A stretch of 64,000 nt of DNA from Phoronis australis (GCA_002633005.1 NMRA01000618.1:118232-182231), one strand, 5' to 3'. Positions 24,401 through 64,000 are shown, numbered from the stretch's first letter. Notes: generated from the sequence alone by a model not told the origin. A program made the numbers and translations.

Positions 24401-27400
24401 TATATCGAGTGGAATAGTTGTTCAAGCAGCGAGAACAAAGAACCCCAAATTGTAAACGTGTCTCACGGCGATTCACGTGTATGAAGTATAGTGTCATTGT
24501 AGCTTAATTCTGAAAAAAAAATCTACGCGAAAGAGAAACGCTGGCCAACGGAAAATGCGGCAGGTACCATGGAAGCGTTCTACTTTTAAAACATGGTTCA
24601 CGTCCAGGAATATTATTTTCAGACTTCCAACTCACGCAGTTCTTGAGCGCAATTGTGAGGCATGGTTTTGCCACTGAAAGTACATGTACAAGTAGACACA
24701 GCGTCTGGAATTGACACAACTTCTGAATTGTAACAAACTGGGTCAGCGTTGTCGCCGTAGGCCTAAATTGCCATATGCAAAAGTAGTTCCGGCAGTTTGG
24801 GCAACTTACATCCATTTGGGTCGGCAATGTCGACTCAAATTGTTTACAAATTACATGTTGTGTATAGTGCGGCTGTTTTATCAATTTGTGGCCGCACAAG
24901 TGCATCACTTTTCAGTTGCTGGAAATCTATTTTATAGTTGTCACATTTATGTCAGCAATATTGAAATTGGAGCTAAGACAAGGACTGCGGGAGGGTAAGT
25001 TATGCCAAAGACTTCATCTGTTAGCCAAGGTACCCGAGGCTGAGAATATTGACTTATGGAACAGAAATTGTGAATTCCTATTATCACAAAATTCACGAAT
25101 GGTATCTCATGATACAGCATTCCAACCTAACAGACCAATCATTTTAAGAATCGCCATTTTGGTAGGTTACGCAAGTAAGGTCTTCAGCATTTTCGCGAAG
25201 AACTCTCGGCATTTCGCGTGATGTCGCGTGATCTTGCTTTTTACCGAGACTTTTGTGTCTACGGAACGTATCCCTGGTCCCGGGCTAACTTTGAAGTCGG
25301 AAGTCGATTCTAAAGCTGACAAAAACTGTCAAAGAAGCTCAAAAGTTAAAAAAAATGAAAAATGAAAACACTATGGCTTGCGGAGTGGGAAATGTTTTTT
25401 AAGCTCCGACGGCAGTGGTTGTTGTATGAGAAGCCTTTATATGCCCATTGCCGATTCTTACTTCCACCCAAAATAAGTCAATTTTACGTCATTTTAGTTG
25501 GAGCGTAGAGCCAGCGATGAGGAGGTAATAAATCAACAAATCAAGCAAATAGAAATAAGCATGGAACAACCAGCCCATGCAAACTTACTGGAAAACAACT
25601 TGAAAAAACTGAACGAAAAGGATTCCATTGACTTCACCATCTACAATGTTCAAAGGCGGATAACTGGGAAATTTGGCTCAACTTGGAGGACCACTCAGCA
25701 CGTGCGGTACTTTGCTACGTACATAAAAGGTGAACATTTGTTTTTAACGCGATAAAAAGATAGGAAAATACTTCTATCCATTGGACCTTGAAAACATCTC
25801 CAGGAGTTGCGCCTGGGGGGAATGACGCGTTGTGCTGTACGTCTGCTACATATATTTGACATGATCAGTAAAAATCAATCACGTTGCTTTGAATTGCCTA
25901 TTTTTCAGATCCTGGTTTTATTTTTGGATTGGCAGTACCGTACCAGGACGAACAATTTCATCACGTGTTGCATACCGAGCGCCCTCTACAGGAAGTCAGA
26001 TTATGTACCCAGGGGAACGATCGCGTTGAAGGCGGTAACAAATAGAACCTTTATCACGACTTATTTGCAGTGTTCTATGTACTTCTTGTCAACAGTAATG
26101 TTTCGTACACTCTTTCTTGCAAAGTCAATCAATATTATTTGTGTTCGTCATGTGTTTCGAAAAAGATCCATCAACAGCTGACTGCTTCCAGATATTAAAA
26201 AACCAAGCTTCTAAAAAAGCCACAGTTATTAAGATAAAACATTACAATTATTCAATATGTCCAGTACATTCTCATGTCGTGCATCCAAGTAAAAAGCGGG
26301 CACTGATTTTATGAAACATTCTTGTGTTTTTAGGTGAGAGTTCCTGTGTTTTAGTCTCTACTTCAGCGTTTTGTGGCAAACGCGACCAGCCAGTAACGCC
26401 TCAGGAGCTGCGCCGTTATTTGAACCAAAGTACGTGCCTATTTATGTAAAAACAGGGTACAGCCTCAAGATGGCGCTGATCAGGTTACATGTAGTTATTT
26501 GAGGCTGCCTTAGGGAAAATCAAATGTGTCAGAATTCTGACACATTTTTACAGCAATCTCAACAATATCATGAGTAACAAGAGTTATCAACTTTGAAATT
26601 TTCTGCAGTATAATATAAAAATGAAAACTAACAGTAGAATACATCAATTTAGGTATAAATTTTTGAAAACATGATGTACTTTGATTCGAAAACAGAATAA
26701 CTCCAAAATGAATGATATTATTAATATGAGAACAGATTAAAAATAATCTTTGTTTAAAACATTAATAAAAATGCCTTCTGATTTATGAATGGCTTCAACA
26801 ACGCCTGCGAAAATAATTAAAATCTGGCTTTGTTTTAATGACGTCAAGGCACCGGCCAATCATTGCGCAGAAGGTATTTACCCTAACCAAGCCTCAAATT
26901 GCTAAACCAATCAGTGACATCTTGAGGTTTTGGGACGAGGCTGGAGCAGGGTATAGTTTCGTAGACGCAGAAAGTAGTTCGATCACGTGCTTAGCATACA
27001 TGGCGATATCTCGCAAAATCATGGCCACGTATTCCCATGAGACAAAATAATGAAAGTGGTATCTTTTGATACTTCAATCCATTATGGATAGCATCCCCCA
27101 GACCTGCGTTTTGTGAGTAGTGTAAACAGAACTACTACAAAAAACATTCGCGCACTCATTGGGCGGGGGGGCTCGGCGCGAAGTGGGCAAAAAGGTCCGC
27201 CTCGGAGAACCAAAAAGTCCGAGTAAACGAGACATAAGTCCACTAAAAAGGCGTGCTAGCCCCCTTTTTAGTCCTCTCGCTTTTTGTTAGCAAAAGGTCC
27301 ACACCGCCAGAAATTCGAGCCCCCCATATTAAAGGGTGTGTGCGCGCATGGAAAAAATCGACCTCTTTAAATGTTGAGGAAACACAGAACCCTTCGCAAC

Positions 27401-30400
27401 ACTAGAACTTCCACGAGCCAAAATACGGAGGCCGCCATTACGTGATCACGTGAGCACGCACCATTCAGGTACTGAAACCAGTGCAGTTCAGCACCCGATA
27501 ACGTACAGTAGATGTGAAGCATATTTAAAGGCCTAGTATGGTGCCCATTTGTACATCTAAAATACGTTCATTGGTGAAAAACATCACAATACTGTGTCAC
27601 ATCATACCCCAGTCGTTAATTAAGTAGGCCTTCGACAATGCAGTAGCCCCATCACGAACCCCATTCAGCGCCAAAAAACTTAAGATGGCGCTTGCCCTAA
27701 TCGAAGTCTATGACATCATCGTTACAAAGAATTTGTCTTTCACCGTCTCTCCACAGTATTGGAATCAGCGATGACTGGCCGTTTAATTTAGTTCAAAATA
27801 CGTGGAATATCAAGGAAACACATTAACTTTTCATTTCATGTCAGCTAATATTACAATTGATCAAAATCNNNNNNNNNNNNNNNNNNNNNNNNNNNNNNNN
27901 NNNNNNNNNNNNNNNNNNNNNNNNNNNNNNNNNNNNNNNNNNNNNNNNNNNNNNNNNNNNNNNNNNNNNNNNNNNNNNNNNNNNNNNNNNNNNNNNNNNN
28001 NNNNNNNNNNNNNNNNNNNNNNNNNNNNNNNNNNNNNNNNNNNNNNNNNNNNNNNNNNNNNNNNNNNNNNNNNNNNNNNNNNNNNNNNNNNNNNNNNNNN
28101 NNNNNNNNNNNNNNNNNNNNNNNNNNNNNNNNNNNNNNNNNNNNNNNNNNNNNNNNNNNNNNNNNNNNNNNNNNNNNNNNNNNNNNNNNNNNNNNNNNNN
28201 NNNNNNNNNNNNNNNNNNNNNNNNNNNNNNNNNNNNNNNNNNNNNNNNNNNNNNNNNNNNNNNNNNNNNNNNNNNNNNNNNNNNNNNNNNNNNNNNNNNN
28301 NNNNNNNNNNNNNNNNNNNNNNNNNNNNNNNNNNNNNNNNNNNNNNNNNNNNNNNNNNNNNNNNNNNNNNNNNNNNNNNNNNNNNNNNNNNNNNNNNNNN
28401 NNNNNNNNNNNNNNNNNNNNNNNNNNNNNNNNNNNNNNNNNNNNNNNNNNNNNNNNNNNNNNNNNNNNNNNNNNNNNNNNNNNNNNNNNNNNNNNNNNNN
28501 NNNNNNNNNNNNNNNNNNNNNNNNNNNNNNNNNNNNNNNNNNNNNNNNNNNNNNNNNNNNNNNNNNNNNNNNNNNNNNNNNNNNNNNNNNNNNNNNNNNN
28601 NNNNNNNNNNNNNNNNNNNNNNNNNNNNNNNNNNNNNNNNNNNNNNNNNNNNNNNNNNNNNNNNNNNNNNNNNNNNNNNNNNNNNNNNNNNNNNNNNNNN
28701 NNNNNNNNNNNNNNNNNNNNNNNNNNNNNNNNNNNNNNNNNNNNNNNNNNNATGATGAAAGCGTACTTTTAAAACATGGTTCACGCCCAGGAATATTATT
28801 TTCAGACTTCCAACTTACGCAGTTCTTGAGCGCAATTGTGAGGCATGGTATTGCCACTGAAAGTATAAGTAGACACAGCGTCTGGAATTCACAACTTCTG
28901 GATTGTAACAAACTGGGTCAGCATTGTCGCCGTAGGCCTACATTGCCATATGCAAAAGTAGTTCCGGCAGTTTGGGCAACTTATATCCATTTGGGTCGGC
29001 AATGTCGACTCAAATTGTTTACAAATTACATGTTGTGTAAAGTGCACCTGTTTTATCAATTTGTGGCAGCACAAGTGCATCACTTTTCAGTTGCTGCAAA
29101 TCTATTTTATAGTTGTCACTTACATTTATGTCAGCAATATTGAAATTGGAGATAATACAAGGAATGCGGGAGGGTAAGTTATGTCAAAGACTTCATCTGT
29201 TAGCCAAGGTACCCGAGGCTGGGAGTATTGACTTATGGAACAGAAACTGTGAATTCCTATTATCACAAATTTCACGAATGGTATCTCATGATACAGCATT
29301 CCAACCTAACAGACCAATCATTTTAGGAATCGCCATTTTGGTAGGTTACGCTAGTAAGGTCTTCAGCATTTTCGCGAAGCACTCGCGGCATTTCACGTGA
29401 TGTCGCGTGATCTTGCTTTTTAGCGAGACTTTTGTGTCTACGGAACGTATCCCTGGTCCCGGGCTAACTTTGAAGTCGGAAGTCGATTCTAAAGCTGACA
29501 AAAACTGTCAAAGAAACTCAAAAGTTCAAAAAAAACATGAAAAATGAAAACACTATGGCTTGCGGGGTGGGAAATGTTTTTAAGCTCCGACGGCAGTGGT
29601 AAAAGTTTGTTGTATGAGAAGCCTTTATATGTCCATTGCCGATTCTTGCTTCCACCCAAAATAAGTCAATTTTACGTCATTTTAGTTGGAGCGTAGAGCC
29701 GGTGATGAGGAGGTAATAAATCAACAAATCAAGCGAATAGAAATAAGCATGGAACAACCAGCCCATACAAAATTACTGGAAAACAACTTGAAAAAGCTGA
29801 ACGAAAAGGATTCCATAGACTTCACTATCTACAATGTTCAAAGGCGTATAACTGGGAAATTTGGCTCAACTTGGAGGACCGTTCAGCACGTGCGGTACTT
29901 TGCTACGTACATAAAAGGTGAACATTTGTTTTTAACGCGATGAAAAGATAGGAAAATACTTCTATCCAATGAACCTTGAAAACATCTCCAGGAGTTGGGC
30001 CTGGGGTGAATGACGCGTTGTGCTGTACGTCTGCTACATACATATTTGACATGATCAGTAAAAATCAATCACGTTGCTTTAAATTGCCTTTTTTCAGATC
30101 CTGGTTTAATTTTTGGATTGGCAGTACCATACCAGGACGAACAATTTCATCACGTGTTGCATACCGAGCGCCCCCTACAGGAAGTCAGATTATGTACCCA
30201 GGGGAACGATCGCGTTGAAGGCGGTAACAAATAGAACCTTTATCACGACTTATTTGCAGTGTTCTATGCACTTCTTGTCTACAGTAATGTTTCGTACACT
30301 GTTTCTTGCAAAGTCGATCAATATTATTTGTGTTCGTCATGTGTTTCGAAAAAGCTCCATCAATAGCTGACTGCTTTCAGATATTAAAAAACCAAGCTTC

Positions 30401-33400
30401 TAAAAAGCCACAGTTATTCACAGACACTTGGGTTTATCGCAAATGACGTCACTCAATACTATATATAAGAAAACCTAAAGGTTGGACACTTAAACTTTGC
30501 CAAGCCGAGGCTCCCAACTTCAACCGTCCAAAATCCGAATAAAATCTGCATGCACCTCCCTCAGTCTGATGTTGCATAAAACTTCGAAGCCTTATCTTTC
30601 CTAGATCCCATTAACTGTCTTCGTGAGTGGTGAATTGGCGATGAAATTTCCAAAGCAATCTCAAAACTCTGAATCCAAGGACCTGAAATAGTAAACATGG
30701 CGGATTTAAGTTGTGCTTCAACTTGCACGCTTGTCGTAGGTGAAACTTCGAGTTTGAGCAAGCAACCAATATTTCAAATTCAATAATTCTAATCCAAAAC
30801 TCAACTAATTGAGAATGTTAAAGTTAGTATTTTAATGATTATTTGTAACTTTATTCCACTGACTGCTCATTTTAGCCCTTAACTTAGAATATTATTATAT
30901 AAACTGGCGTATCTTGTTTCTCATCTTGACATCACGCACTTTTTTGATTGAAGCACAACAAACACTCGGCCAGAAAACGCAGTCCATGCAAGTATTACAA
31001 TGGGCGTGGCCGACGAGTTAACTCATGGTTTTGGCCAAAAGTAAAACCTTCATAAGAAATCACAGTACATAAAAAACTTCGCATATCAATACAGTATCAG
31101 GATAATATATATTTGACACAAATATGTGAGTAACTACATTTATTTGGCAATAAAGTGCTCTCTGCTTCTCATGATCAAGTAGTCGAGGGATTGACGGCGA
31201 AAGCCGCGCGAAATTAGACTTTCGGATTTAGCTCGCGAGCGTCCTTCAAAAACCCGGATGTGCGAAGACCGTCTGCCATGACATCACGGAATCAGGTCCT
31301 TGAATTTGTGATTTTGGCATTCTTTTGGTATTTTTGTCGCCAAATCACCACTCGACGGCAATTTGAAGAGATCGAGTGAAAGAAAGTATTCTAAGAGTTG
31401 TCCGATGCTAGTTTCGTGGAGTTCCATGCACATTTGAGTAGAAAATTCTGAGCAAACAGATTTCGAGTGTCCAACCTTTATGTTTTCTTATATATATATA
31501 TATATATATTATTGAGTGACGTCAGTAGCGATAAACCCAAGCGCCTGTGCAGTTATTAAGATAAAACATTACAATTATTCAATTTGTCCGACACATTCTC
31601 ATGTCGTGCATCCAAGTAAAAAGCGGGCACTACTTTTATGAAACATTCTTGTGTTTTTAGGTGAGAGTTCCTGTGTTTTAGTCTCTACTTCAGCGTTTTG
31701 TGGCAAACACGACCAGCCAGTAACGCCTCAGGAGCTGCGCCGTTATTTGAACCAAAGTACGTGCCTATTTATGTAAAAACAAGGTACAGCCTCAAGAAAG
31801 AGCTGATCAGGTTACATGTAGTTATTTGAGGCTGCCTTAGGGAAAATCAAATGTGTCAGAATTCTGACACATTTTTACAGCAATCTCAACAATATCATGA
31901 GTAACAAGAGTTATCAACTTTGAAATTTTCTGCAGTATTATATAAAAATGAAAGCTAACAGTAGAATACATCAATTTAGGTATAAATTTTTGAAAACATG
32001 ATGTACTTTGATTCGAAAACAGATTAACTCCAAAATGAATGATATTATTAATATGAGAACAGATTAAAAATAATCTTTGTTTAAAACATTAATAAAAATG
32101 CCTTCTGATTGATGAATGGCTTCAACAACGCCTGCGAAAATAATTAAAATCTGGCTTTGTTTTAATGACGTCAAGGCACCGGTCAATCATTGCGCAGAAG
32201 GTATTTACCCTAACCAAGCCTCAAATTGCTAAACCAATCAGTGACATCTTGAGGCTTTGGGACGAGGCTGGAGCAGGGTATAGTTTCGTAGACGCAGAAA
32301 GTAGTTCGATCACGTGCTTAGCATACATGGCGATATCTCGCAAAATCATGGCCACGTATTCCCATGAGACAAAATAATGAAAGTGGTATCTTTTGATACT
32401 TCAATCCATTATGGATAGCATCCCCCAGACCTGCGTTTTGTGAGTAGTGTAAACAGAACTACTACAAAAAACATTCGCGCACTCATTGGGCGGGGGGGCT
32501 CGGCGCGAAGTGGGCAAAAAGGTCCGCCTCGGAGAACCAAAAAGTCCGAGTAAACGAGACATAAGTCCACTAAAAAGGCGTGCTAGCCCCCTTTTTAGTC
32601 CTCTCGCTTTTTGTTAGCAAAAGGTCCACACCGCCAGAAATTCGAGCCCCCCATATTAAAGGGTGTGTGCGCGCATGGAAAAAATCGACCTCTTTAAATG
32701 TTGAGGAAACACAGAACCCTTCGCAACACTAGAACTTCCACGAGCCAAAATACGGAGGCCGCCATTACGTGATCACGTGAGCACGCACCATTCAGGCACT
32801 GAAACCAGTGCAGTTCAGCACCCGATAACGTACAGTAGATGTGAAGCATATTTAAAGGCCTAGTATGGTGCCCAAATGACTATTTTTACATCTAAAATAC
32901 GTTCATTGGTGAAAAACATCAAAATACTGTGTCACATCATACCCCAGTCGTTAATTAAGTAGGCCTTCGACAATGCAGTAGCCCCATCACGAACCCCATT
33001 TAGCGCCAAAAAAATTTAGAAGGCGCTTACCCTAATCGAAGTCTATGACATCATCGTTGCAACGAATTTGGCTTTCACCGTCTCTCCACAGTATTGGAAT
33101 CAGCGATGACTGGCCGTTTATTTTAGTTCAAAATACGTGGAATATCAAGGAAACACATTAACTTTTCATTTCATGTCAGCTAATATTACAATTGATCAAA
33201 ATCATTACCTTAAGAATTTTTTATTCAATTATTTAGCACACATTCTAATACGGGCCCATATGGGAATCCCCGGGAGTGTGACTGGAGCCGCCGAAACAAA
33301 ACGCTTCGTCTGAATTGTTATAAGCAATTTTACAATGTTTATTATAAAGTGTAATTTGCTTGATACAAAAATTTTGATGTTAGGAACTTTGCATTCATGT

Positions 33401-48000: not shown

Positions 48001-51000
48001 CCATGATGGACAAACATTGTCCCGGTAGTTTGATTTCTTGGTCATGGAACTAGAGAAGTAGCATGTGACGGGCAAGAACAGGAAATCCATATGGACTTTC
48101 TTGATGAGATGGTTAATATTCATCTCGTTAAATTGGCCGTCATGACTTTTAAACCATGGAAGGCCCCCGGGCAAGATATGGTATTTCCTAAGATGGTACA
48201 GGAAGCAGGAACCAAGCTTTTCCAAATCCTGTCTAATCTTTACAAGTCCAGTCTTAGACTAGGTTACGTCCCAGAAACCTGAACTGAGACAAGGGTTGTT
48301 TTTATTGCCAAACCTGGCATGGATTCTTACTTCAAAACGAACTGCTTTAGACTATAACTCTAACCTCCTTCTTCTTGAAAAGTCTTGAGAAATTGTTTCT
48401 CTGGCAGTTAGAAAGGCAAGATGTTATGAGCACACTTCTGAGAAATCAGTTCGCTTACAGAGCTGGCTTTTCTAAAGAGACTGCTCTTCATCTTCGTGTC
48501 AGACAGCTTGAAAATGCTGTATACAATAAATTTTTGCTCTTGGCACTTTCGTCGACATTGTTGGTGCCTTCAGCTACATTAAACACGATGCTATCTACAT
48601 GTATAATGCACTTGTTCAATTTCAGATTGACAAAGTGCTTATAAGGTGGATTATGTACATGCTGAGCAGTCAGACTGTAACAGCTAAGCTTGAGGGAGCT
48701 AGTGTGACTGTCCGTCTCACTAGAGGTACTCCACAAGGTGGTACCGCTTCACATGCTCTCTTCAATGAGGTCATGGACTGCCTGTTAAGGCAACTGTTGG
48801 CTAACATTGGGCAAGGTCTAGTTGTACAGGCCTATGCTGATGACATTGCCTTCTGCGTGTCAAGTGTTGATGCTTGCACATGCCGCAGTATTGTCCAGAA
48901 GGCACTTAATATTGCTATTCGATGGACTGAGACAGTTGGCTTGGAGATCAATAGCATTAAAACAAAAGTGTTGATGTTCACCTGGAAGTGGAAGTGGAAT
49001 GTAAAACCATTAAGCTCTATAGTACTGAACTCCCACTCCAAGAAAAGTCACCTACCTAGGTGTTACTCTCCACCATCGCCTTTTCTGGACACCTCACATG
49101 ATGGACAAGATAACCAAGTCCAAGTCGGCCCTGGTAAGGTGTTGCCGAGTAAAACTGTGGACTCTCCTGAAAATTCTCTCTGGATCTACACTGGTGTTAT
49201 CAGAACGATGTTAGCTTACTTAGCATCAATAAGGATAACATCTCTTGGACAGAGCACTGTTAGAACTAAACTGACACAAATATAGCGTTTAACTTGCTTG
49301 TGTGTTACTTCTGCTTTTCCAGGGACACCTACAGCTGCAGTGGAAATACTTATTGGTTTGCCACCCCTGCATATTTACCTCAGGGGTGAAGCTGTGCTTG
49401 CAGCTTACCGTATGAGGTGTAATGGGCAGTGGAGTAATGTACGAATCATTGATACTGTTGCAACAAGTTAATGTCAGAAACTGGACGACTCTTGGCAGTG
49501 CCAAGTGATGTTTTAGTGACGACCCTAAATCACTGACACAATTTCTATACAGTAATTGGAGCTGTTCACGAAATCATTGATTACAATGACTAACAGTCCG
49601 TTTGTTGCACTGATGGCTCTAAACTTGACAACGGACAGTCAGGATCAGGAATTTACTTTCCAGACTCGGACCTTGCAGGTAACGACAAAGAAAGCTGGAT
49701 CTCACTGGGCAACAACGTAACAGTGTTAGCTCATACAGGTTAAATAGTCTTTCTGTTATTCTGAAACAAATGAGGAATACATTGGAGTCGTGTCCCCATG
49801 AGTCATAATCAGGTGATTAGTGTAATGGGCCTTGCCTTTTGGCCTAAACACGCCTGATGTACCGCAAAAGGCATCAGGCCACCTGCACCCCTTTTTAAAA
49901 AATAATTTAATCCAGTATCCAGTGTCGTGCAGGCGATCGTTTATTTGGCATTAGGTGGTAGGTAAGTTGGGAAACTAGATGGTGTATGTACCTAGTATTC
50001 ACACGTTTCTATGATCAACGATTTTATGTCTGATTGAAATGCTACTAATGTGAAGAGATCGCAAATCTTACAGCTAGGTCCTCTGTCTGTGCTACTCGGG
50101 ACCACAGATGCCCCACTTTCACTTGCGTTTATGACGTCCCCAGGGGTCGGTAAGGCCAATCGTCATCACCTTCACCATCCTCATGATTCTCACCAATACC
50201 ACTATATTCGTACCAGTCACTGCATATGTACTCTATCATAAATGTGGTGTAATGTTTGGGCCAATAGGAAGTTTAGAAGACGATCCGTGCAGTGGGACTG
50301 GCACGTATTATTTCACATGGGTACCGGATCTTGACCTGTACATACTGAAAGCTAACGCCACCAAGGCGAAGACGCATTTCGATTTCAACTGCCATATCAT
50401 GAACAGGTAGGTGAAAGCTCTTGCTTCAGGTTTTAATATTATCGCAATCTCGTGTTCGTGCACGAATCTTGCAAAAAAGAAACGAGGACATGACCAACAC
50501 AATGCAATGAAATGCGCTGATGATGCATACATGTAGTAACCGTTATGATCGCAGAGGTGTTCATCAGCTTCCTGTAAGGTACAGCACAGGCCGTGCGCCG
50601 TACAGAACTCCATTCTTGTGACCATGTTGTTAGGGAAGCAACTTTATTTTTTCTCTGCAGCTAAACATATTTTTAACATTCGATACCCGAAAAGTACCCA
50701 TACTAAAATTGCAAATAAAAAAGTTTTCCACGCCCAGTAGTCCTAATTTAATATTTTTAGCGAGATGGGCCGCTGTGTGCTGTCTCTTTAGCCAATCACA
50801 AGCTTAGTAATGGAGAAGATAAAGAAGTATTTCAACATGGCTACCTCCGTATGTTGTGCCGTGAACCATACACTGTAGATGGTCAAGCAGTGTCAACGGT
50901 TATCATTTCTTGGAAACAACAGAGGAAAAAGTCAGCGAGTGTGTAGAGAATGTCTTTTTATAAGATAAAAAGGGTGCTAGTGATGAACATAATGTATGTG

Positions 51001-52663: not shown

Positions 52664-53874
52664 CTCTGCTGGCGTCAATGCAGATGTATGCAGTATATTT
52701 TTCAAAAACAGAATTTACGAATTCATTTGAATTTCGTCTTACTTCGTCGAAGTTAAACATACGTAAGATGCTTCTAAATCGTTGAATTGAGTGAATTCAG
52801 ACTGCACGGGGACAGTAGTCAAACTCCCATCATGCAGTAGAATGTCACTGATCCTTGTTATAATTTCGTACAACGCAAACTCTAAATGCACAAGGGGAAC
52901 CCCTGTCATCATGATGAAACGTGAACTGCAACTTCGATCCGAAACATTCACCCGGCACAACGTGTAGTACCGTGACCTGTGACCGAAGAGCACGATAACT
53001 TATTAAAGGCGAGTTGCAAGTACTCCACTTCGTCTCAGTTGCAGCCCACAATACAGCAGTGAAACTTCACTGTCATTGGAAGGTCGAATACAGCTAATGC
53101 AGTTGAGAAAACGTAAATAAAAAACAAGGCACCACCAAAAAAAAAACAAAAACGCCAATGGCGCTATAACAAGGTTAGATAACTGCACGGCGGGTGCTGC
53201 TGCATTGTGGGTAAATAAGGGGAGATTCAAGAGAGAATGTCACTGTGTAATCCGGGAACGTCCAGTTGCTATTGGTACATTTTGGAAGCATTGTATGTAA
53301 CTCGGACGGAAAACCTGGAGAGCTATCGTCAAAATGTCATGGAAAAGGTGATTTTGTTACATTGATCTTAAGTATGGTTACATTTACCCTCAGCTCTATC
53401 CTTACGCAGTCGAAAACGTTGGCAATCCTAGGACTGATTTCTTAAGGGAAATTGTCTGCCATGAGAACAGCATTGTTTGTGATGAACATTGAGTGTTCAA
53501 CTCCAATCCCTATCAAACTGAAATGTTCAAAAGAATTTATAATGCAAATTTTGTGAAACATGGTGTAAACCGGAGAATATGTGTTATTTTTGGTGATAGT
53601 TACATAGTTTGACGCCTTACGGAAGCACGCCGGCTGGGGATGTACACAACTGAGGTCGAATAATTTTCATATGTTTACGATTCCCATGATTGCCATGTCA
53701 CTATAAGTAAAATATCATAAACATATTTATTTCATTAAAAATACTCTCGGATAGTTGGTGTGCAATCAATTACAAACATTGCATACTGAACACGAAATCT
53801 GATACCGCTCGGCCTACAGGTGGTGACCTGGAGTAATTGTATAGCCACTTCCAGCAATCATATAGACAACCATA

Positions 53875-54108: not shown

Positions 54109-55426
54109 ATTTTTACGCTGTATCCCCCAAAACAGGATGGTTAGGTGATGATTAGGCTTCGCGACACGCTTCATGCTCACAAGAAATACAGTTACAAAGT
54201 TCAAAAAGACTTAAACGTGCAAAATCACATTCACGATGAATTTTAGGTAACGGGTAACAACACAATTTCACGTTTGTGCAAAAGCAAAATTGTTTCGAGG
54301 TTCACAAAAAAACTTCACCGTCTCTTCAGGAAGCACCGATTTCTCAGACAGAATGTGCGAGGGACCAAATATAAATCAAATAGAACTATAAAGAAAAATT
54401 ATGAAAGGCGACCAAACTGAAATGTATATGAACGCCAGAAAATAAACAAGGAAATAATAAGTAAAAACAGAATAACACAACAAAGAAAGAATCAATACGA
54501 CAAAGGATCAAAATGTTTAGGTGGACTTATTGCACGTTCCAAAACACCAAAGTTCAAGTGTTAAAGAGGTTATTGTAACCAGGCGGAGTTACAAAAATGT
54601 GGAAGATTTCTTAACAGAGCAACAAAAGCACGTCTTTCAGCAAATTCAAAGACAAGAGTAAGTGACAAGTAGCTTAACAAGCGGCAAACCTGAAAGCTAT
54701 CAAGCACTCACTTGTGCCATCTATTGACGGTTCTGAAATTAAAACGCATTATACATCCAATATACATGTATACATACACTTATTGCTAAGACACAGTGTA
54801 AAACTGCCGAATGAAAGATCAGTGCATAACAAAAAACTAGGATTGAGAAAGACGGGGCATGCATGACCCAGTTCTAGAACAATGACACGATGGGGTGTAC
54901 ACTCAGGAAATGTCCTTTGAGCCTACATGTATCGATTGCCTTCGAATTGGATCTAAAGTGATATCCATGTGTGTTCCCACTTCTAGCAATAGGCGTTCGC
55001 ATGAATGAATGACTTACTGCTTTAACAAAATTCGATGGTCCGAAGGAGCACTCGGGATTCGCCAGGAAGCTCTTAACGAAACACTGTTACTTTGGCTAAG
55101 AAGGTAAAACAATTCCAGACGACTCGAAACAGTGGTTCACAAAGTCATTATGTCAAGGTAGCTTTGACAATGCAGTCGAATGGCATCACACAGAACCTGT
55201 GCACAAGTTTATCAATACTAATGGTCGTAGGTAAGCCCAACCCGTTGGTTACGACCATTTTCTTCTTTTTTAACATAATCACAAAAATAAGACACACAGT
55301 ACTGCCAAACAGCATTTGTTCCATTTTTGCATGCTCTGAACGTAAAAGTGATGAATTTGCAGAGTCTGTGTTGACAACTGTCACATTTGTCATTGTAGCA
55401 CAGACTACAGTTACGGACAGTGGCTC

Positions 55427-56794
55427 TCAACAGCTCTCAAAGCGTAGCTTTAGGCGACGATTCCATTCATTTTTCGCAAGGCAAATTTCTGCAGCAATTC
55501 TTCGTTTTTTGTCTGCTGCCTCGGGTTCATTCACATCGTCAAGACATTTCGCCCAATCCTGATATACGGTATGGTCTTTGTCGCCACCTGTGGCTAATTC
55601 TGCTCGTTTGAAATATTCAAGTGCTAAATCGTACTTTTTGGTGTAATGTAAAACAACCGCGATATCTCTCATGGCAAAAGGTGGCCGATAATACTTGTCA
55701 TAAGCTTTCATCAAGTCGTCCAAGGCAAGCTGCAAATGTTCTTCATGGTTTGGACCACCATTCCTGTAAAGTTGGAAGTGCAGTTGACCGCGAACATAAA
55801 ACGCACTACCAAGTGGTTGAGCTTCGATGGCTGCTTCAGCAAAGGTTTGTGCTTCTGCTAACATGTTGCACTCCATGCATGTCTGCGCTATACGTCTGAG
55901 AACAGATCCACACTTTGGCACACTTTCCTTTGCTTTCCAAAGACACTGCAAACCATCGAAGTGAGCGTGTGAAGGATCGCAATCCTGCACAACCGCTGAC
56001 AAATTGGAAACAAGATCTTTGTACCAGACCAAGAGAACTCCCGCGAAAGCCCATGCTTTGCCGCTCATATCACGGACTCGCTCATTGTTTCGAGCATTAA
56101 CTGAAGCGTAACTGTCCACATCGCCAGTTTCCAGTTGATCAAGTGATCTCATTATTACTTCCGTTTCGCAATATTGTGCCACATCATACAACTCCTTCAG
56201 CGCTTCCTTTAAGAAACGGTCATTAACGTTTTCAATTTCCTTCGCTTGGCGGGCCAGTCGCATCAAATGGAATGCGTATCCCATCCGCCAGTCATGATAT
56301 TCATCTCTGTCAGGGTTGTGGGCACCGAGTGACAATGCATTCTGAAACATCTTTTTAACACACAATATGTCGTCCTGTTGAAGGTGTTGATCTGTTAAAC
56401 AGGCTGAACGAGCAATCTCGATCAGAGCACGAGCTTTCAATATCAGACACTCACTGTTAGGTTTGGTTTCAAAGATCGATTGTAGGCGCGCCTTGGTTTC
56501 TATAGCCTTTTGTTGACGTCCAATGGTATTTTCTACCCACTCAAGGTTCTTCAAGGCATTCAGATTGTATTCATCTTCTTCCAACACACGGCAAAACCAT
56601 TCTTTTCCTTCCGTTGCACTATCCAATAAACAAGCGGCAACTCCTATGATGTTCATTATGGCATGCCTTCTTGCCCATGGCTCATCAGCAAATTCTTGCT
56701 TTAAACGATCTTTTCCGACTTCTAAATATTTTTTGTCCAAGGATAAGTTATGAACGAAAGGCTGCGCAAAGTGCCCCAATACCAAGTTTCTTGT
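55427..56794 (-). CDS. TTC22/IFIT-like TPR domain, terminal 1368-nt exon
   Basis: Open 452-aa frame, ttttcag acceptor at 56795, no ATG start of its own. GHF...RLKQE...AIMNIIG...EWFCRVLEEDEYNLNALKNL...ARALIE...NALSLG...W.....LMRL parallels TTC22 as I recall it; C-terminal TPR helices (AFYVRGQLH, KYDLALEYFKRA). Confidence 0.8.
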   Translation of the reverse strand, partial: TRNLVLGHFAQPFVHNLSLDKKYLEVGKDRLKQEFADEPWARRHAIMNIIGVAACLLDSATEGKEWFCRVLEEDEYNLNALKNLEWVENTIGRQQKAIETKARLQSIFETKPNSECLILKARALIEIARSACLTDQHLQQDDILCVKKMFQNALSLGAHNPDRDEYHDWRMGYAFHLMRLARQAKEIENVNDRFLKEALKELYDVAQYCETEVIMRSLDQLETGDVDSYASVNARNNERVRDMSGKAWAFAGVLLVWYKDLVSNLSAVVQDCDPSHAHFDGLQCLWKAKESVPKCGSVLRRIAQTCMECNMLAEAQTFAEAAIEAQPLGSAFYVRGQLHFQLYRNGGPNHEEHLQLALDDLMKAYDKYYRPPFAMRDIAVVLHYTKKYDLALEYFKRAELATGGDKDHTVYQDWAKCLDDVNEPEAADKKRRIAAEICLAKNEWNRRLKLRFESC

Positions 56795-57129
56795 CTGAAA
56801 ACAAACATGTAAAGGCAGTTACATATCAGAAATGCATTGACAATCATTTTGAGCGACTGTAAATTCATCACTTGTATAGATTAGACGGACGTCGCACGTA
56901 AAAACCAGGAGTTGGGTTCGCCACATTGTAGGGCAGATTATAAAGTGTTCTGGCAACCAGAAACACTGCATGATCTACAGAAATGCAAGAACAAGCGAGT
57001 GAAATGTTAAGATTTCGCGAGAATGCTCAATACCGTACCACTGTAAACTAACAAATTAGTGACTTCTAAAGTGAATGTTAAATGCCTGTTACCACCGACA
57101 CTTGTAGCTCACATTGGCATGGCGTTTAA

Positions 57130-57270
57130 ATATGTATATTTCCAAAAACGTCAGGTGTCACAGCATTCTTATCAGAACCCAGCAATATATTGTCCACGTC
57201 CAAGGCGGGGTTTAAACTTGGGACCTCTCGGTTGTCAGGCCAGCGCTCTAACCACTGTACCCCTGAGTCA
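57130..57270 (-). mobile_element. tRNA-derived SINE fragment
   Basis: ggcggggtttaaacttgggacctctcggttgtcaggccagcgctctaaccactg reads as a reverse tRNA-like head. Confidence 0.55.
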
Positions 57271-57571
57271 TCCGTTAATTTGAATGGAGATCTGCCATAC
57301 TTGCATAGCCTTGGGAGTGGCTATTTGGTAAGCCAACTTGAGTCATTGCTGCGTAGCTTCAACTGCTACAGCTTCGTTTATCTCCATTTAAGTTCGTCTT
57401 TCTTTACCGACAAAGGCCGGATGTACTCCTGGATCTGGATGTTGTGTTGTTTCGACCACATACATGTAAGCTCAACTACTCCTGATGAGATATTGCCTCC
57501 TCTACAGCGTGTCTTGTGTTCATCAATCCTAATTTCAAGTGACCAAACTGTTTCATTAACAAAAGATTCAC

Positions 57572-57670
57572 CTCATGCACAGTAAGCTCGCTTGGTCTTC
57601 TCTCCCCATAACTGTATTTAGTCAGTTGTTGATCCAAGGTGTAAGGTATATTGTTCTTGTTTCGAACTTC
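57572..57670 (-). CDS. Candidate kinase subdomain XI exon (5' boundary uncertain)
   Basis: ...YGERRPSELTVHE|gtgaat; the phase-0 donor matches the phase-0 acceptor at 56794. Confidence 0.5.
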
Positions 57671-58523
57671 CTGCATATGAGTCCTATGTTTTCAGAAACC
57701 CCAAGTTTGTTTGGAAAGCATGTTTTTTGTAGTCTTCTTACACGTCACCTTTTTCTGGTTTACTAAGCATTCACCAGGTTCAATCCTCGCCAGGCACAAC
57801 GAAAATGCAATCCAAGATCCCATCATTAGATTACCTGATACACTTGAGTGTTCTCCTGCAAACGCGGCAACACCTGAGGATGGCCGGAGAAATGAGCGAC
57901 CGAAACGTCGTACCAATGTGAATAGATTAGAAGCTGGTGTAAATAGACATAGAGCTTTCAGAAAAGATGTTAGAATACCACAACATCAAAGTGCTTTGAG
58001 AAAGTCGCTAATATTACGCGTGCCACTCCACCATGAATGTTAATAACCAGCCCTGTGTTTTTCTGTGGAGAAAACTGGTTCTCAACAAGTGGCATTTGGG
58101 TTTGGTTTTCCCAAGTGGTACATGGATAAAGCATCAAAACTTCTGCCATAAAACCGCTCTTGGTTTAAAGTCTGATGTTAGCAAACCCACTATATCAGCT
58201 TTTTAAGAACCCACCATTAGAAAACGAGTGCCTTGTACATGTATACACAACTATCACTTATGGATTATCGGTGACACTACTTCACATTAGATTGTGTCAT
58301 TGTTATACCATTACTGTGTCACTAGGTACACATTGGCTTCATCTGTAACTTAAAACAACGTAAGTCACTCTAATCAAAGAATAGACCTGCAATAAAAATA
58401 AAATTGATTACATCTCGTGAAAAAGCAACATTTTTCATGTCAAATGAACGTGCCTCTTTACCAGTGACATGTATGATCCAATGAAAACTGTCAAACTGAG
58501 AAAAATGTTTTTCCTAACCATAC

Positions 58524-58607
58524 CATTATCCAAAGATTGACGTCTTCCGTTTTCTCCAAGCCATCAATAAAGTCGTCTGTAGCATTGTCCATCTCCACGC
58601 AGATAGT
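58524..58607 (-). CDS. Candidate kinase C-lobe exon
   Basis: ttctccttag|TICVEMDNATDDFIDGLEKTEDVNLWIM|gtatgg; the only open frame; phase 0-0. Confidence 0.5.
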
Positions 58608-58711
58608 CTAAGGAGAAAAGATACAATTTAGAGTGCTAATGAGTTCCCACCATGACCATGTGTTTCAAAAGAAATGTATTAATGCATCTTAAGAGAGAGA
58701 GAGTTAGAGGG

Positions 58712-58834
58712 NNNNNNNNNNNNNNNNNNNNNNNNNNNNNNNNNNNNNNNNNNNNNNNNNNNNNNNNNNNNNNNNNNNNNNNNNNNNNNNNNNNNNNNNN
58801 NNNNNNNNNNNNNNNNNNNNNNNNNNNNNNNNNN
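58712..58834. other. Assembly gap (N run)
   Basis: Run of n. Confidence 1.
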
Positions 58835-59039
58835 TACAAAATAAATAAATGGAAATGCAAAAATCAGTAGGAATAGATGAAGAAGCCATATATATAACAT
58901 ACTTAAGAAAACAAAGTGAGTTAGCACTGAAAACGACCGACACGCTTGAAACTAAGAAGAGGACTGGCACAGCTCAGGATATTTTGAGAATACAATTAGA
59001 TACTGTTACATATCAAGCAATTAGAAATATGACAGACTG

Positions 59040-59520
59040 GATCGTAGTTGCTAATACTAAAATTGGTTAAGAACCTGGAGAATGCTTGCAAAGAATGTGT
59101 TTTTATTATATTTAGAGCTTAGACTGGTATTTCGTTGTTGTCTATAAGTTGAGGACTTTCAAATCTAATACATGCTTTTGATGACAATTTGTTGGAGGGA
59201 GGAATTAAAATTTTGGGTTGTATTGTCGGAATAGCAGCTGAGTATTGATTCAGGTATGTAGGAGTATAATGTGTCTGCTTGGTTTATATTGGATGGGTTT
59301 ACTTAAGAAGTTGTTAGTGTAATAATACTTAGGAAGCTGATTATTGAGGAATTTCATGTAAAATTTGCAGTTGAGATTTTAAAAATGTCTTGAAGTAGAG
59401 GGAGGCGAAGTTCCATACATATGGGCAGAGAGTGACCATTATAACTGAAATTTGAAATAAGAAGAGATATAATAGCCTTTAGTATACTGGTTTCTAAGAA
59501 ACAAGCCAAAAATTTTAAAA
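59040..59520 (-). mobile_element. L2/Crack-group LINE 3' fragment
   Basis: KAIISLLISNFSYNGHSLP..ELRLPLLQDIFK resembles the RAIRII.NS.Y..HT.PLF..L..L.L.DI pattern. Confidence 0.5.
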
Positions 59521-60252
59521 GATATTTTTCTGTTGTGGGGGTTGGCGTTAGGATGAAGGAATGGTCACATTTTAAGTGTATTTGCAAATTTCATAAATAA
59601 CGAACAAATTGCTTCCATTGTAGGACGAGTGATGTCAGTCCTTTGACGCCGATCCAAATCGAGTGCTACCACAAGTAGGCTTATACATTTTCTTGAGGCC
59701 AACCTCATTCCATTATGGCAATTATGAATTAGATGTGACCCTAATTTACTGTGGTCATTCTCAGTGTCCAAAGCATCTCTCGTGAAAGTGGGTCGACTTC
59801 ATACAGCCACAAAGCCAACGAAAGTTCGAAAGTGGGAAATCAAAATCATTGTTTGAATTCTCAAGCACTTAGAGTGGTGGTCTTATCCACTCTCCTCTCT
59901 GTCTGCATATAAATTGTTCAGTTATAGCTCAAAATTTCCCTCGTCTTCTGATCTGCTACAGTTGTATGTTCTGCCATTGCAATTGATTGTCAAGTGACCA
60001 AATATCTTCCACCCATTAAATCATTTGGTGAGAAACTGAAACTTAGAAATAAGTAATGTTGCTAATAAAAAATTGCGACTTTTTGGTATAAAAAGTGCTT
60101 ATTTTGTTAGATTTTATGGTAGTCATTTCATATTAGATAACTGAAACCTTAAAAACTAAGCAAATGCATGGCGTGAAATCTTTAATTAGAAAATACAAAA
60201 CGAAGGAAACCAAGAAATACACAAGAGTTATAAAACAGTGCATGCAATTTAC

Positions 60253-60341
60253 CTGATATTCTTGTGTTAGAGTGGCGAGATGTTCCAGATAATCTGTTTT
60301 ATATTCTCTAACATATTCATCATGAAGTGCAAGCGCCATTT
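60253..60341 (-). CDS. Kinase gene exon (after subdomain IX)
   Basis: tttttag|(E)MALALHDEYVREYKTDYLEHLATLTQEYQ|gtaaat; phase 1-0 fits the 61827 donor. Confidence 0.6.
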
Positions 60342-60879
60342 CTAAAAAATAATGATGTATTAACCACATGCCACGTGTTATATTTGTACAAAGAAATGGT
60401 GAAACGTCATTTAATCGAATGAAATGACCAGAAATCTTAACGAACGAATGATAAATGACTGTTACATATTGTTGTTGAACGCCTTTGCTAAGACTGTTCA
60501 CAGTTTTTAGCTGCCAAAACACGAAACATCAATTGAGTCTTATCAGCTCACATAATCTAGACACATCACGTCCGACTCACTCTCAAAATTTGTTCTGTCA
60601 CTTGGCTTATACTGAAGGCAGTCTGAAACCAGTATTCTCAAGATCCGGGGCTCACACTCCTGTAGCTGTTCCATGCAGTAATCTTTAATTCCATTCAAAA
60701 TTTGTTGTTTTATGGATTAAGTTGGCAAACCTGAAATAGTTAGAAATTGCTGCGTTGGCGGCAGAAGCATTTTCATTTGGTGTGTCAAATGAACGGCGAA
60801 ATCAGAAAAGGGAGGTGTGTGGCGGACAGAAAATTTTGATAGTTAAAGTCTCATTTCGTGTATTCTAGAGACATCGAAA

Positions 60880-61450
60880 TGCCTTTTGACTATGTTATGG
60901 ATATTGGTCTGGCATCTGCCGGACCACTTCCGGCACCCATGAAAAGAGGAATTCCTTCCTCACTAATTTTGGCAAACATACATTTTTCTACATCGGTGCC
61001 ATGCTATGTGACTTTCCCTATTATCATGTTTGTCAGTGAAGCTATAATTATCTTTAAATCCAGGTACTTAGGTAATATTAAATTGTATGACCTTTCATTT
61101 ACCTGTTATCATTTTGTTGTCAAACTTTTTATTTTCATTTTTGACCAGAGTTTCTCATTCCAGTTTGTTGTTCCATGATTTTCTTTCATATTGGACTCCA
61201 GATGACGGGACAAGTAATGCAAAATAGCTTTATGTAATGAATAAAGGTATCTTTCTACTTGCACTACCACATTAACTATTACTATGTACCTATGACTCAA
61301 AATTTCAAACCAGGTTACCCAACAACTCAAATATATGTCTAAAAATTTCTAAAAGTAGAAAATAAGTGCCCTATATATCCAAGCAACCAATCGACAGAAA
61401 ACAGAGCCAATTAGCCATCAATTTTAAAATCCATGGTCAACATGACTGTC
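60880..61450 (+). mobile_element. Possible Penelope-like RT relic
   Basis: Fragments in order: KRGIPSSLILANI, SRYLGNI, YLHY, PYI; very decayed. Confidence 0.4.
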
Positions 61451-61826
61451 TCGGGTTTGAAGATTTTCCTTACCAATTAAACACTATATCACAATTCATT
61501 AATTCATTTTGGTGGCAGGGACCAACACCTATAATGAGGACGACATTTCTGGACTTTTGAAAGACCTCTGTGACGACGAGGGGGATTTCCAGTGGTGACG
61601 AAACAATGCCTTCTAATAATGAAAGTCCCTAAACCGCAACTTGCTAAGTTTCATGGATACCCGTCCTCACGATTTATAATACCTCTGCCCAGACAAGATG
61701 GCCTCCCTATTTTGCCCGGGGGCTTCAAGCTGAAGCTGATTCGGTGGATTTACACAGGCAATTTCGTAATGTCCTAAACTTGGCCAAAGGCAAATATTTA
61801 GCAAATGACCAATAGAAAATAGTTAC

Positions 61827-61882
61827 CTCTGCATGTGAATAGCAATTCTTCAGTGATGAGTTCAAAGAGCGTTACTCCAAAG
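61827..61882 (-). CDS. Protein kinase exon (subdomain IX)
   Basis: (S)FGVTLFELITEELLFTCR; phase 2-1. Confidence 0.88.
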
Positions 61883-62377
61883 CTGAAAGTATATAAAGAA
61901 GCATACGGAATTAGTGCTGTTGTTCTTGGTGCACAACATTTGAAACTTAAATAGCGACTATGAACCTGCTTTTTTGGTTCAGACCACTCTTCATTATGAA
62001 AATTATCTCAAAATGTTCCTTAGTCGACTTACTGATGCTTTCAAGGTTTCAAAAGTACAGACAATATTGGTTATTGCCTGATACCATTCAGTCTGTAAAG
62101 ATTATCAGGACGTGTCATTTACGACGCTGAGAATGGTCTCAAAGAATAACGAATCGAACAACAACTGGCATCGCTCAAGTTTTCACTCCAAACGAAAACA
62201 TTAGAATTGTTGTACCTTGCATTCAGCAATATTCAATGCCCCCTCATCATTTTAATTGTGCAAAAATCTTGCAAGGAATTTGCGGTCTTCATGCAGTTAC
62301 CGTTTAATGACAATGCACACTTGTCTCAGAACCAGATAGGCTTGTAGTATAATTCAAAATGGACTTCAAATATTTAC

Positions 62378-62538
62378 CTCCAAACATCTGTCTCAGGACT
62401 GTTCTTGGGCATAGTACGGCCTGCAATATCTGGCTTCAACAACTCGGGGGCTAAGTGTGACAACGTTCCCTTAGCATGGGTTGAGCTGTCCAGGTCGGTT
62501 GTGAAGCCTTGGAGAGTAGACACTCCAAAGTCCCCAAC
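62378..62538 (-). CDS. Protein kinase exon (subdomains VII-IX)
   Basis: VGDFGVSTLQGFTTDLDSSTHAKGTLSHLAPELLKPD...SPETDVW. Confidence 0.92.
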
Positions 62539-63012
62539 CTATAATTTGAAAATCATTAGTGAAGATACTTTCTTGTAGATTTAAAAACATATTTTTCTGT
62601 AATGCCTTATCACAGATGATACATCATATGGTCCCTTACAAAATTTCCTCAACTAACCTTAGAATATTTTAGTCACCAAGACAAAAATGTAATTGACCCA
62701 CTAACTGCACAAGTCAAACCTAACTACTGTGTAAAAAGTACAATTAATGCAATGACTACCATAAACTCAGTTTCCCAGTCCCCAAATAAAGTAGTGACTG
62801 TCAAAGTAAACGTATTGATGTTTGCTATTGGACCCCTGAGAAGATCATTCTGAGTTAGAGATTGGTAAACGAATAATAGCACCTCGTGATCAAAACATTG
62901 ATTTTCGTCTTCAGTTGTCTACTGTTATTAACCTCTACCACAGAAACTAAAATAACAGTAATTAGAACTTGATGCCATTTTATACCTTGAAAAAAGCTTT
63001 CGCTAAAATTAC

Positions 63013-63132
63013 CTTAGCCTTGAATCTGTCACTTAGTAAAATATTGTCTAATTTTAAATCACAATGGACAAGACTCGGAGTAGCACTGTGTAGATATCTC
63101 ATGGCGTCCGCGACATCCACCATCATTTCAAC
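63013..63132 (-). CDS. TKL-type (RIPK/IRAK/MLK-like) protein kinase exon (subdomain VI)
   Basis: VEMMVDVADAMRYLHSATPSLVHCDLKLDNILLSDRFKAK; cag acceptor, gtaatt donor. N-lobe exons lie further upstream or outside the window. Confidence 0.93.
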
Positions 63133-64000
63133 CTGCCACAGACACAGATAAACACTAAATACATGAAGCAAACTAGCCTGAGAAGTGTACTGATCGTGTC
63201 AGCTGGAAACTAATTATAATGCAAAGCATTAGCGATGTCCCGATTTAAGGACCAACCGTTGGTTTCCTTTACCTTCAACAACACGCAAAACTCCCTCACT
63301 ATACATGTACATAAAAATGCCCTTCAAACGACTCAAAAATATTTGCAATGTTAGAGTCGGTTATAACCCACGCAGACACTCGGTTTGTGAAGCCGTTATC
63401 AGTATAGAATAGTATAGAATAGTATACTGCTCCCTGGTGCGAAAATAACTAAACAACCATCACACACAAGTAAACGTTGAAAATGAAGCTGTTTACCAAA
63501 CTAGTTTTACTAGCAACATTCTTGCGTTTCAACTCACGCTTTCAATGTCACCGGATTTTACGAGCCAACGGCCATCCCAAAATTCACTTGAAAACTTACA
63601 GAAGCGCGGTAGATAGCCCCAAGATCATTTGCCTTGACATGCGTGATACATCAGCTCAACTATTATCCACTTTAGGTGCACACCTGAGCTGGTACCTTTC
63701 TGTCCCCAGTTGCCCAAAGTATAGCATAAGGCAATCGCTAAATAACCGCAAAAATACGTTAGTTTTGGATATTTTTTTACAATAGCCGACGAGAGGTGGT
63801 ACAGAGATTTATGAGAAAGCACTTAATTATGGTAAGACAACTTCTTGCACACTATTCGAGTTGCAAGCACCATCACGCACCTGTACACTGATTGGTATAT
63901 GCGATTCGATGCACTTTAGTTTTTCCTGTAAGTCCCTCAGAGAGCCATTATGCATGAATTCCAAAACCAGCCCACACATATTGTCCAAAATGATGCCGTA

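Follow-up and report, generated by a model that had tools for sequence, protein, structure and literature searches.

Does one gene of Phoronis australis join a kinase to a tetratricopeptide repeat (TPR) domain resembling TTC22 and the IFIT proteins, and if so, what might such a protein do? The question arises from the minus strand of a 64,000-nucleotide stretch of genomic DNA (GCA_002633005.1, NMRA01000618.1:118232-182231), referred to here as the window and analysed at its full length. An initial annotation, made from the sequence alone, had proposed a TKL kinase fused to a TTC22/IFIT-like TPR domain as a candidate innate-immune sensor. We compared the window with RNA data of matching species label, comprising three stranded raw-read runs (about one-fifth of each run was mapped) and one contig run. 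The fusion is one spliced, transcribed gene, whose start codon and kinase N-lobe lie beyond base 64000. The terminal exon is read as a divergent TTC22/IFIT-superfamily domain from sequence comparison and structure prediction, and the kinase is assigned, with moderate confidence, as RIPK-like.

RNA joints between the kinase exons and the TPR exon

All seven introns between kinase exon A and the TPR exon (Table 1) are supported by RNA, with 9-23 reads apiece when counts are summed over the three runs; joints with fewer than three reads were not listed. Support comprises 23 reads at the A-B joint (63881/63132), 10 at B-C, 20 and one contig at C-D, 16 at D-E (acceptor 60730), nine exact reads, seven of a diverged form and one contig at E-F, and nine reads and one contig at F-G (58607/60253). 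The final G-TPR joint (58524/56794) is carried by seven exact reads and by nine that stem from a diverged allele or paralogue; the latter differ by six letters at the joint, keep the frame and connect the same two exons. The first mate of the joint reads always lies on the plus strand, as expected for minus-strand RNA. A single 299-nucleotide contig covers exons E, F and G, and each of the three read runs contains transcripts of the gene. In the DNA of the minus strand, every intron is GT-AG with matching phases, and the RNA-supported chain from exon A to the TPR exon comprises 2148 nucleotides, equal to 715 codons and a terminal stop, with one TAA as the only interruption of the frame.

These joints connect kinase and TPR exons without a break, in agreement with the earlier proposal of a single gene; its placement of the catalytic motifs on minus-strand exons and of a 455-codon terminal exon behind a phase-0 acceptor is likewise borne out. 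The route between the two parts had been drawn differently. The initial annotation led from the kinase to the TPR exon through an exon encoding RRPS, by a junction 57572-56794, and that junction is not among the listed joints. The linkage itself stands, up to the exon beginning at 63132, but it is made by exon G, which joins the TPR exon directly, and the RRPS exon was rejected as the linking exon. No joint of at least three reads leads to or from it, its local read depth is 1.7, 1.0 and 0 in the three runs, and among eight acceptors compared its own shows the poorest pyrimidine tract (0.44 vs 0.56-0.83); it may represent a minor isoform. The stretch between 60253 and 57670, previously described as partly resolved and holding a gap, does contain a run of Ns (58712-58834), but the gap sits within the F-G intron and three exons (60730-60581, 60341-60253 and 58607-58524) are now resolved. 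A coding exon concealed in the gap was also rejected, as the gap is inside an intron that the reads skip. The F-G intron region (58600-60200) further holds repeats that are transcribed in both directions and show numerous loose read ends.

At the downstream end, the N-terminal motif of the TPR family begins a few residues into the last exon, which has no Met at its start. This is as expected if a whole module had been added as the last exon. The polyA-type hexamer nearest to the end of the TPR exon is at 53731.

The kinase exons had been described as stop-free, and in this respect the window DNA departs from the description, carrying a TAA in exon E that falls before kinase subdomain XI. At position 60719, 19 of 23 reads (8/11, 5/6 and 6/6) and the contig show C on the plus strand, which converts the codon to GAA (Glu). 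The reads with GAA bear at least two to three further differences from the window, and four of the 23 reads lack the open base, which rejects a pure assembly error. The exon is not spliced around, since the RNA uses its acceptor. What the window holds is either a nonsense allele or a damaged paralogue, and in most transcripts that codon is open. Among 904 mapped reads, 156 match the window at 99% identity or more and 572 at 90-95%, some of the latter lying on intronic repeats; this indicates that diverged alleles or paralogues are also expressed. The linker is spliced in frame to the TPR exon in two sequence classes, so the fusion is older than the divergence of these classes. Of the 19 best-supported read differences within the TPR exon (selected among 296 listed differences), 11 are synonymous, which points to a constrained protein; in exons D-E the corresponding count is three of seven. 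A one-base insertion at 56749, near the start of the TPR exon, occurs in three of 16 reads of one run and reflects either another broken allele or a misaligned paralogue.

Table 1 Features of the fusion gene in the window, in order of transcription.
Feature	Coordinates	Strand	Description
Kinase exon A	63881..64000	-	hinge region, subdomains IV-V by eye; open at window edge; no Pfam match alone
Kinase exon B	63013..63132	-	catalytic loop HCDLKLDN (non-RD)
Kinase exon C	62378..62538	-	DFG, activation segment, APE, DVW
Kinase exon D	61827..61882	-	SFGVTLFEL
Kinase exon E	60581..60730	-	end of C-lobe; carries in-frame stop
In-frame TAA	60717..60719	-	window DNA, exon E; codon 157 of the window part
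Linker exon F	60253..60341	-	no Pfam match
Linker exon G	58524..58607	-	phase-0 donor spliced to TPR exon
RRPS exon	57572..57670	-	open, in phase; no listed joint; treated as intronic or minor cassette
Terminal TPR exon	55427..56794	-	455 codons plus TGA; phase-0 AG acceptor; TTC22/IFIT-superfamily TPR domain
Probable 3' untranslated region	54500..55426 (minimum length)	-	same-strand read depth 1-3.5 in two runs to edge of stretch examined

The TPR domain and the kinase

Pfam finds TPR matches only in the terminal exon, all of them sub-threshold. In a protein-cluster atlas, the best-ranked clusters are those of TTC22 (0.96-0.97), ahead of those of IFIT (0.95-0.96), at a recognition value below the reliable range. 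A HMMER search of 1.84 billion representatives returned 19 relatives with 24-32% identity (E 4.5e-8 to 9.5e-4). The 13 that are named, of which 10 are TTC22 or TTC22-like and three uncharacterised, come from a brittle star, sea stars, a crinoid, acorn worms, amphioxus and gar. Similarity to the TTC22/IFIT superfamily is collinear over the N-terminal motif and the TPR array that follows, and gar TTC22 shares 21% identity with the exon over 331 columns. The closest relatives are invertebrate deuterostome proteins, at an identity too low to place the host. In a midpoint-rooted tree of 20 rows (four short rows left out, no IFIT included), gar and amphioxus TTC22 form a clade (98/98), and the window row lies outside it on a long branch (1.99), weakly placed beside a TIR-bearing group (77/94). 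The likeness to TTC22 noted earlier is therefore upheld at the level of a superfamily whose recovered members are mostly TTC22-like, but orthology to TTC22 is not established.

TTC22 had been taken for a stand-alone protein. Among the 19 relatives, seven have a TIR match, and Ptychodera flava XP_070550220.1 combines an N-terminal GT4-conflict glycosyltransferase with a C-terminal TTC22-like TPR module (453 bits); the module thus recurs beside immune effector domains. Four of the TIR-type relatives, from sea star, crinoid and acorn worm, show an IFIT-like N-terminal motif (CHLTW, CHFTW or SHLTW) followed by a TPR array and, at the C-terminus, one or two TIR domains, and these TPR-TIR proteins make stronger candidates for IFIT-fold receptors than the protein of the window does. 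None of the 19 relatives has a kinase domain. A profile search spanned proteins of 1155-3295 amino acids, while the likely size of the fusion (800-1150) was reached by single-sequence searches only. The remaining 29 matches of the profile search were generic TPRs (36-67 bits), just two of them with kinase domains (Gigaspora, 43 bits; an unnamed protein, 38 bits). A word-index search with the TPR exon, covering 250-797 and 798-2275 amino acids, gave nothing, a weak blank as relatives exist.

Modelled with a 24-row alignment, the domain is predicted to adopt a full-length IFIT fold (predicted local distance difference test, pLDDT, 88.5; predicted template modelling score, pTM, 0.85). When 955 chains were realigned, IFIT5 or IFIT1 took all of the first 11 places (Z 22.9-26.8, root-mean-square deviation 4.4-4.9, 359-370 residues). 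The best is IFIT5 (Z 26.8, deviation 4.4, 370 aligned), with residues 3-443 of the model on 14-412 of IFIT5; the best non-IFIT chain, a designed TPR, reaches Z 20.4 over 135 residues. Foldseek orders TPR proteins by E-value without separating families, and the highest query TM-score among the listed rows is that of IFIT5 (0.55). Family profiles searched against the PDB match IFIT5 and IFIT1 from the N-terminus (E 1e-10 to 7e-12), with designed TPR arrays ranking higher. Model and family profile both match IFIT5, one of the two proteins against which the initial annotation had suggested a comparison. A single-sequence PDB search with the TPR exon was uninformative, and some family-profile PDB searches were dominated by TIR matches.

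For the kinase, the HxD, DFG and APE motifs and the subdomain IX/XI residues are present in the translation. Exon B matches Pfam PK_Tyr_Ser-Thr at 25.8 bits (cut-off 23.1), exon C matches Pkinase (E 0.008), and exon E after the stop matches PK_Tyr_Ser-Thr (E 0.026). In the PDB, exon B is closest to RIPK2 (E 2.6e-6), followed by CTR1 (4.6e-5), a LysM receptor kinase and IRAK1 (1.2e-4); exon C gives RIPK3 (E 0.053) and BAK1 (E 0.061) within a group that as a whole lies at about E 0.05-0.07. IRAK1, to which the kinase had been likened, was rejected as its closest relative because RIPK2 and RIPK3 rank higher for exons B and C. The catalytic loop of RIPK2 is likewise non-RD. In the protein-cluster atlas, exon B retrieves short generic kinase clusters only. 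Pfam finds no death domain, CARD, RHIM or ankyrin repeat; the last exon matches TPR families only and the linker exons nothing. A second kinase or TTC22-like copy was not found within the window.

Candidate functions of the fusion

We lean, by a modest margin of belief, towards a lineage-specific gene for a ligand-gated, innate-immune RIPK-like kinase whose IFIT-fold module is swappable. The immune role and ligand gating are the most likely interpretation of a non-RD, RIPK-like kinase joined to a module that recurs with TIR and GT4-conflict domains. RIPK2 and RIPK3 signal to NF-kB or cell death upon clustering. By analogy, the TPR superhelix would bind a ligand (a protein, a peptide or an RNA end), and binding would cluster the protein or lift an inhibitory contact; the non-RD kinase would then trans-activate or scaffold NF-kB or cell-death signalling. 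Such a gene presumably arose when a kinase gene acquired a single-exon TTC22/IFIT-like module at its 3' end as the final exon, just as relatives of the module came to be linked with TIR or GT4 effectors in invertebrate deuterostomes.

Several points weigh against this interpretation. The link from kinase to TPR domain is a chain of short-read joints, with no single read or contig covering both, and short reads cannot phase the stop codon with the G-TPR joint. The gene is seen in one species, and a second species with the fusion was not found. Immune function, ligand and kinase activity are inferred rather than observed. Only two short exons carry the RIPK assignment, with plant CTR1, LysM receptor-like kinase and BAK1, and IRAK1, close behind; the N-lobe lies outside the window and the protein may be a pseudokinase. 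The fold match is a prediction from 24 sequences, and the model built without an alignment is poor (pLDDT 51.7). In a wide structural search no IFIT1 or IFIT5 chain is listed, and generic TPRs (Z 19.8) stand above IFIT2 (rank 27, Z 16.1), which aligns from residue 2 to 442. Twelve of the 19 relatives lack an effector domain match, Ttc22-null mice show no phenotype according to one report (PMC13693868), and two of the ten IFIT5 residues that contact RNA are identical in the window domain.

These residues bear on a special case of the ligand-gated kinase, in which foreign single-stranded RNA, bound by its 5' end to the IFIT-fold domain, would switch on the kinase with a PKR-like logic. Contacts E33, T37, Q41, K150, R186, Y250, R253, K257, R260 and Q288, taken from two studies (PMC3950709, PMC9677429), were mapped by eye via one profile at about 16% identity, so that positions may be one residue off in places. 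The full-length structural match to RNA-bound IFIT5 speaks for an RNA-end sensor, as do the two identities (R186 to R179, R253 to R300) and the replacement of T37 by R30, where IFIT1 has R38 (PMC3950709). The R186 position is K or R in 17 of 22 relatives, and K150, R253 and R186 are, in that order, the three strongest electrostatic contributors to IFIT5 RNA binding (PMC9677429). Against this, K150, the strongest contact, becomes L133 and is K or R in none of 19 relatives, and six further contacts are changed (E33 to V26, Q41 to E34, Y250 to S297, K257 to Q304, R260 to M307, Q288 to V333 or Y332). The aromatic W146 becomes R129. Substitutions K150M (about 15-fold) and Q41E weaken IFIT5 binding (PMC9677429), and the domain carries a net charge of -8 with an isoelectric point of 6.0. 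With two of ten contacts identical, an IFIT5-type triphosphate pocket is not supported, and the suggestion that the module binds nucleic acid finds no footing at the residue level. Some basic lining remains, judging from the aligned residues, and another anionic ligand or an RNA end may bind there. We regard the RNA-end sensor as rather unlikely.

A little more probable, though still on the unlikely side, is a TPR domain that docks or autoinhibits without sensing, recruiting substrates or partners or restraining the kinase, on the pattern of the plant BSK kinases, in a pathway that need not be immune. TPR superhelices usually bind proteins, and the IFIT5 pocket is mostly not conserved. Transcripts occur in all three read runs, for which treatment is not on record, and human TTC22 reportedly exerts its action via RPL4 (PMC13693868). 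The immune setting is favoured over such docking by the company that the module keeps among its relatives and by the non-RD, RIPK-like character of the kinase. It is improbable, in our estimation, that the locus is a decaying chimera, that is, a kinase paralogue recently and non-functionally spliced to a TPR gene in a fast-turnover family. The nonsense codon of the window copy, the reads without the open base, the insertion at the TPR exon start and the absence of any relative above 32% identity among the 1.84 billion representatives would fit decay; the predominance of open reads, the synonymous majority among the 19 TPR-exon differences, the in-frame splicing of both sequence classes and the fact that more than half of the reads are only 90-95% identical to the window would not. 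Two separate genes, with a first exon of its own for the TPR part, are very hard to reconcile with the joints. IFIT genes do typically consist of a tiny ATG exon and one large exon (PMC3688568), and read depth over the TPR exon is somewhat above that of some kinase exons. Nonetheless, all 16 reads of the listed joints at acceptor 56794 have exon G on their other side, a single contig connects G with F and E, and there is no Met where the TPR exon starts, just before the family motif.

How does the ligand-gated kinase compare with known systems? It resembles vertebrate IFIT1 and IFIT5 (PDB 4hot, 5udi) in the predicted fold, the N-terminal profile match (E 2e-11; GHFAQ where IFITs have CHFTW, with H and F kept and C and W not), the retained GYAxxxxRL and the encoding of the whole domain in one exon, and differs in its low identity (about 16%), some 70 unmatched C-terminal residues of IFIT5, a 29-residue insertion and the fusion to a kinase. 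In contrast to the IFIT gene layout, the large exon is spliced to kinase-linker exons rather than to a small ATG exon. TTC22 and TTC22-like proteins (e.g., the TPR-TIR proteins XP_033639975.1 and XP_070566814.1) are the closest sequence relatives, and in some of them the module is joined to effector domains, but none of the 19 carries a kinase, and the window domain is shorter and on a long branch. RIPK1-5 and amphioxus RIPK-like proteins share the order of a kinase followed by a C-terminal interaction module; here, however, that module is an IFIT-fold TPR domain and not a death domain, CARD, RHIM or ankyrin array. Plant BSK proteins, which are immune-linked, consist of a kinase and a short, ordinary C-terminal TPR array, and PKR combines double-stranded RNA-binding domains with an eIF2-alpha kinase. 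BSK has the same domain order as the window protein and PKR would have the same sensor-plus-kinase logic if the ligand were RNA; no homology to either beyond the kinase fold is claimed.

Domain-shuffled RIPK-like kinases are already known, and kinases with ordinary TPRs are common. In amphioxus, RIPK-like kinases occur with LRR, DEATH, Zalpha, SH3 and ZU5 domains in shuffled combinations (PMC9573974); the words TPR and tetratricopeptide do not occur in the main text of that paper. PMC3688568 treats IFITs as stand-alone proteins that only jawed vertebrates possess and sets aside TPR matches in acorn worm and lancelet as unrelated, and the accessible part of PMC13197388 mentions neither TTC22 nor invertebrates. 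A literature search, mostly without subscription papers or supplements, found no description of a kinase-TTC22/IFIT fusion, in line with the initial annotation, and no paper on TTC22 combined with TIR. The kinase-TTC22/IFIT combination is apparently undescribed.

A whole predicted IFIT fold wired to a kinase, with relatives wired to TIR or glycosyltransferase domains, suggests that the fold first served as a modular receptor domain and only later turned into an antiviral protein standing on its own. TTC22, with a mouse knockout lacking a phenotype, gains a testable ancestral role, and the fusion offers autophosphorylation as a direct read-out for ligand finding. Should the ligand be an ordinary protein partner, the gene would be one more domain shuffle among invertebrate RIPK-like kinases. 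A bolder, distinctly doubtful proposal is that an RNA-activated kinase has been assembled from a RIPK-like kinase and a clamp for RNA ends with the IFIT fold, and that the invertebrate TPR-TIR, GT4-TPR and kinase-TPR proteins make up an unrecognised family of IFIT-fold pattern receptors ancestral to the effector-less vertebrate IFITs.

Other features of the window

Apart from a reverse-transcriptase fragment described below, nine scanned open reading frames of the window have no Pfam match. At 24569-33203, around an N gap (27869-28751), a unit of about 1.65 kb is present four times, with pairwise identities of 95-98%; this represents a tandem duplication or an assembly artefact. A direct duplication of about 1 kb (92% identity) occupies 1-1021 and 6282-7364, and an inverted repeat pair lies at 15843-16553 and 22833-23473 (about 84% identity over 514 and 141 columns). 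On the plus strand, 48530-49285 holds a reverse-transcriptase fragment (Pfam RVT_1, E 8e-18), likely a retrotransposon remnant.

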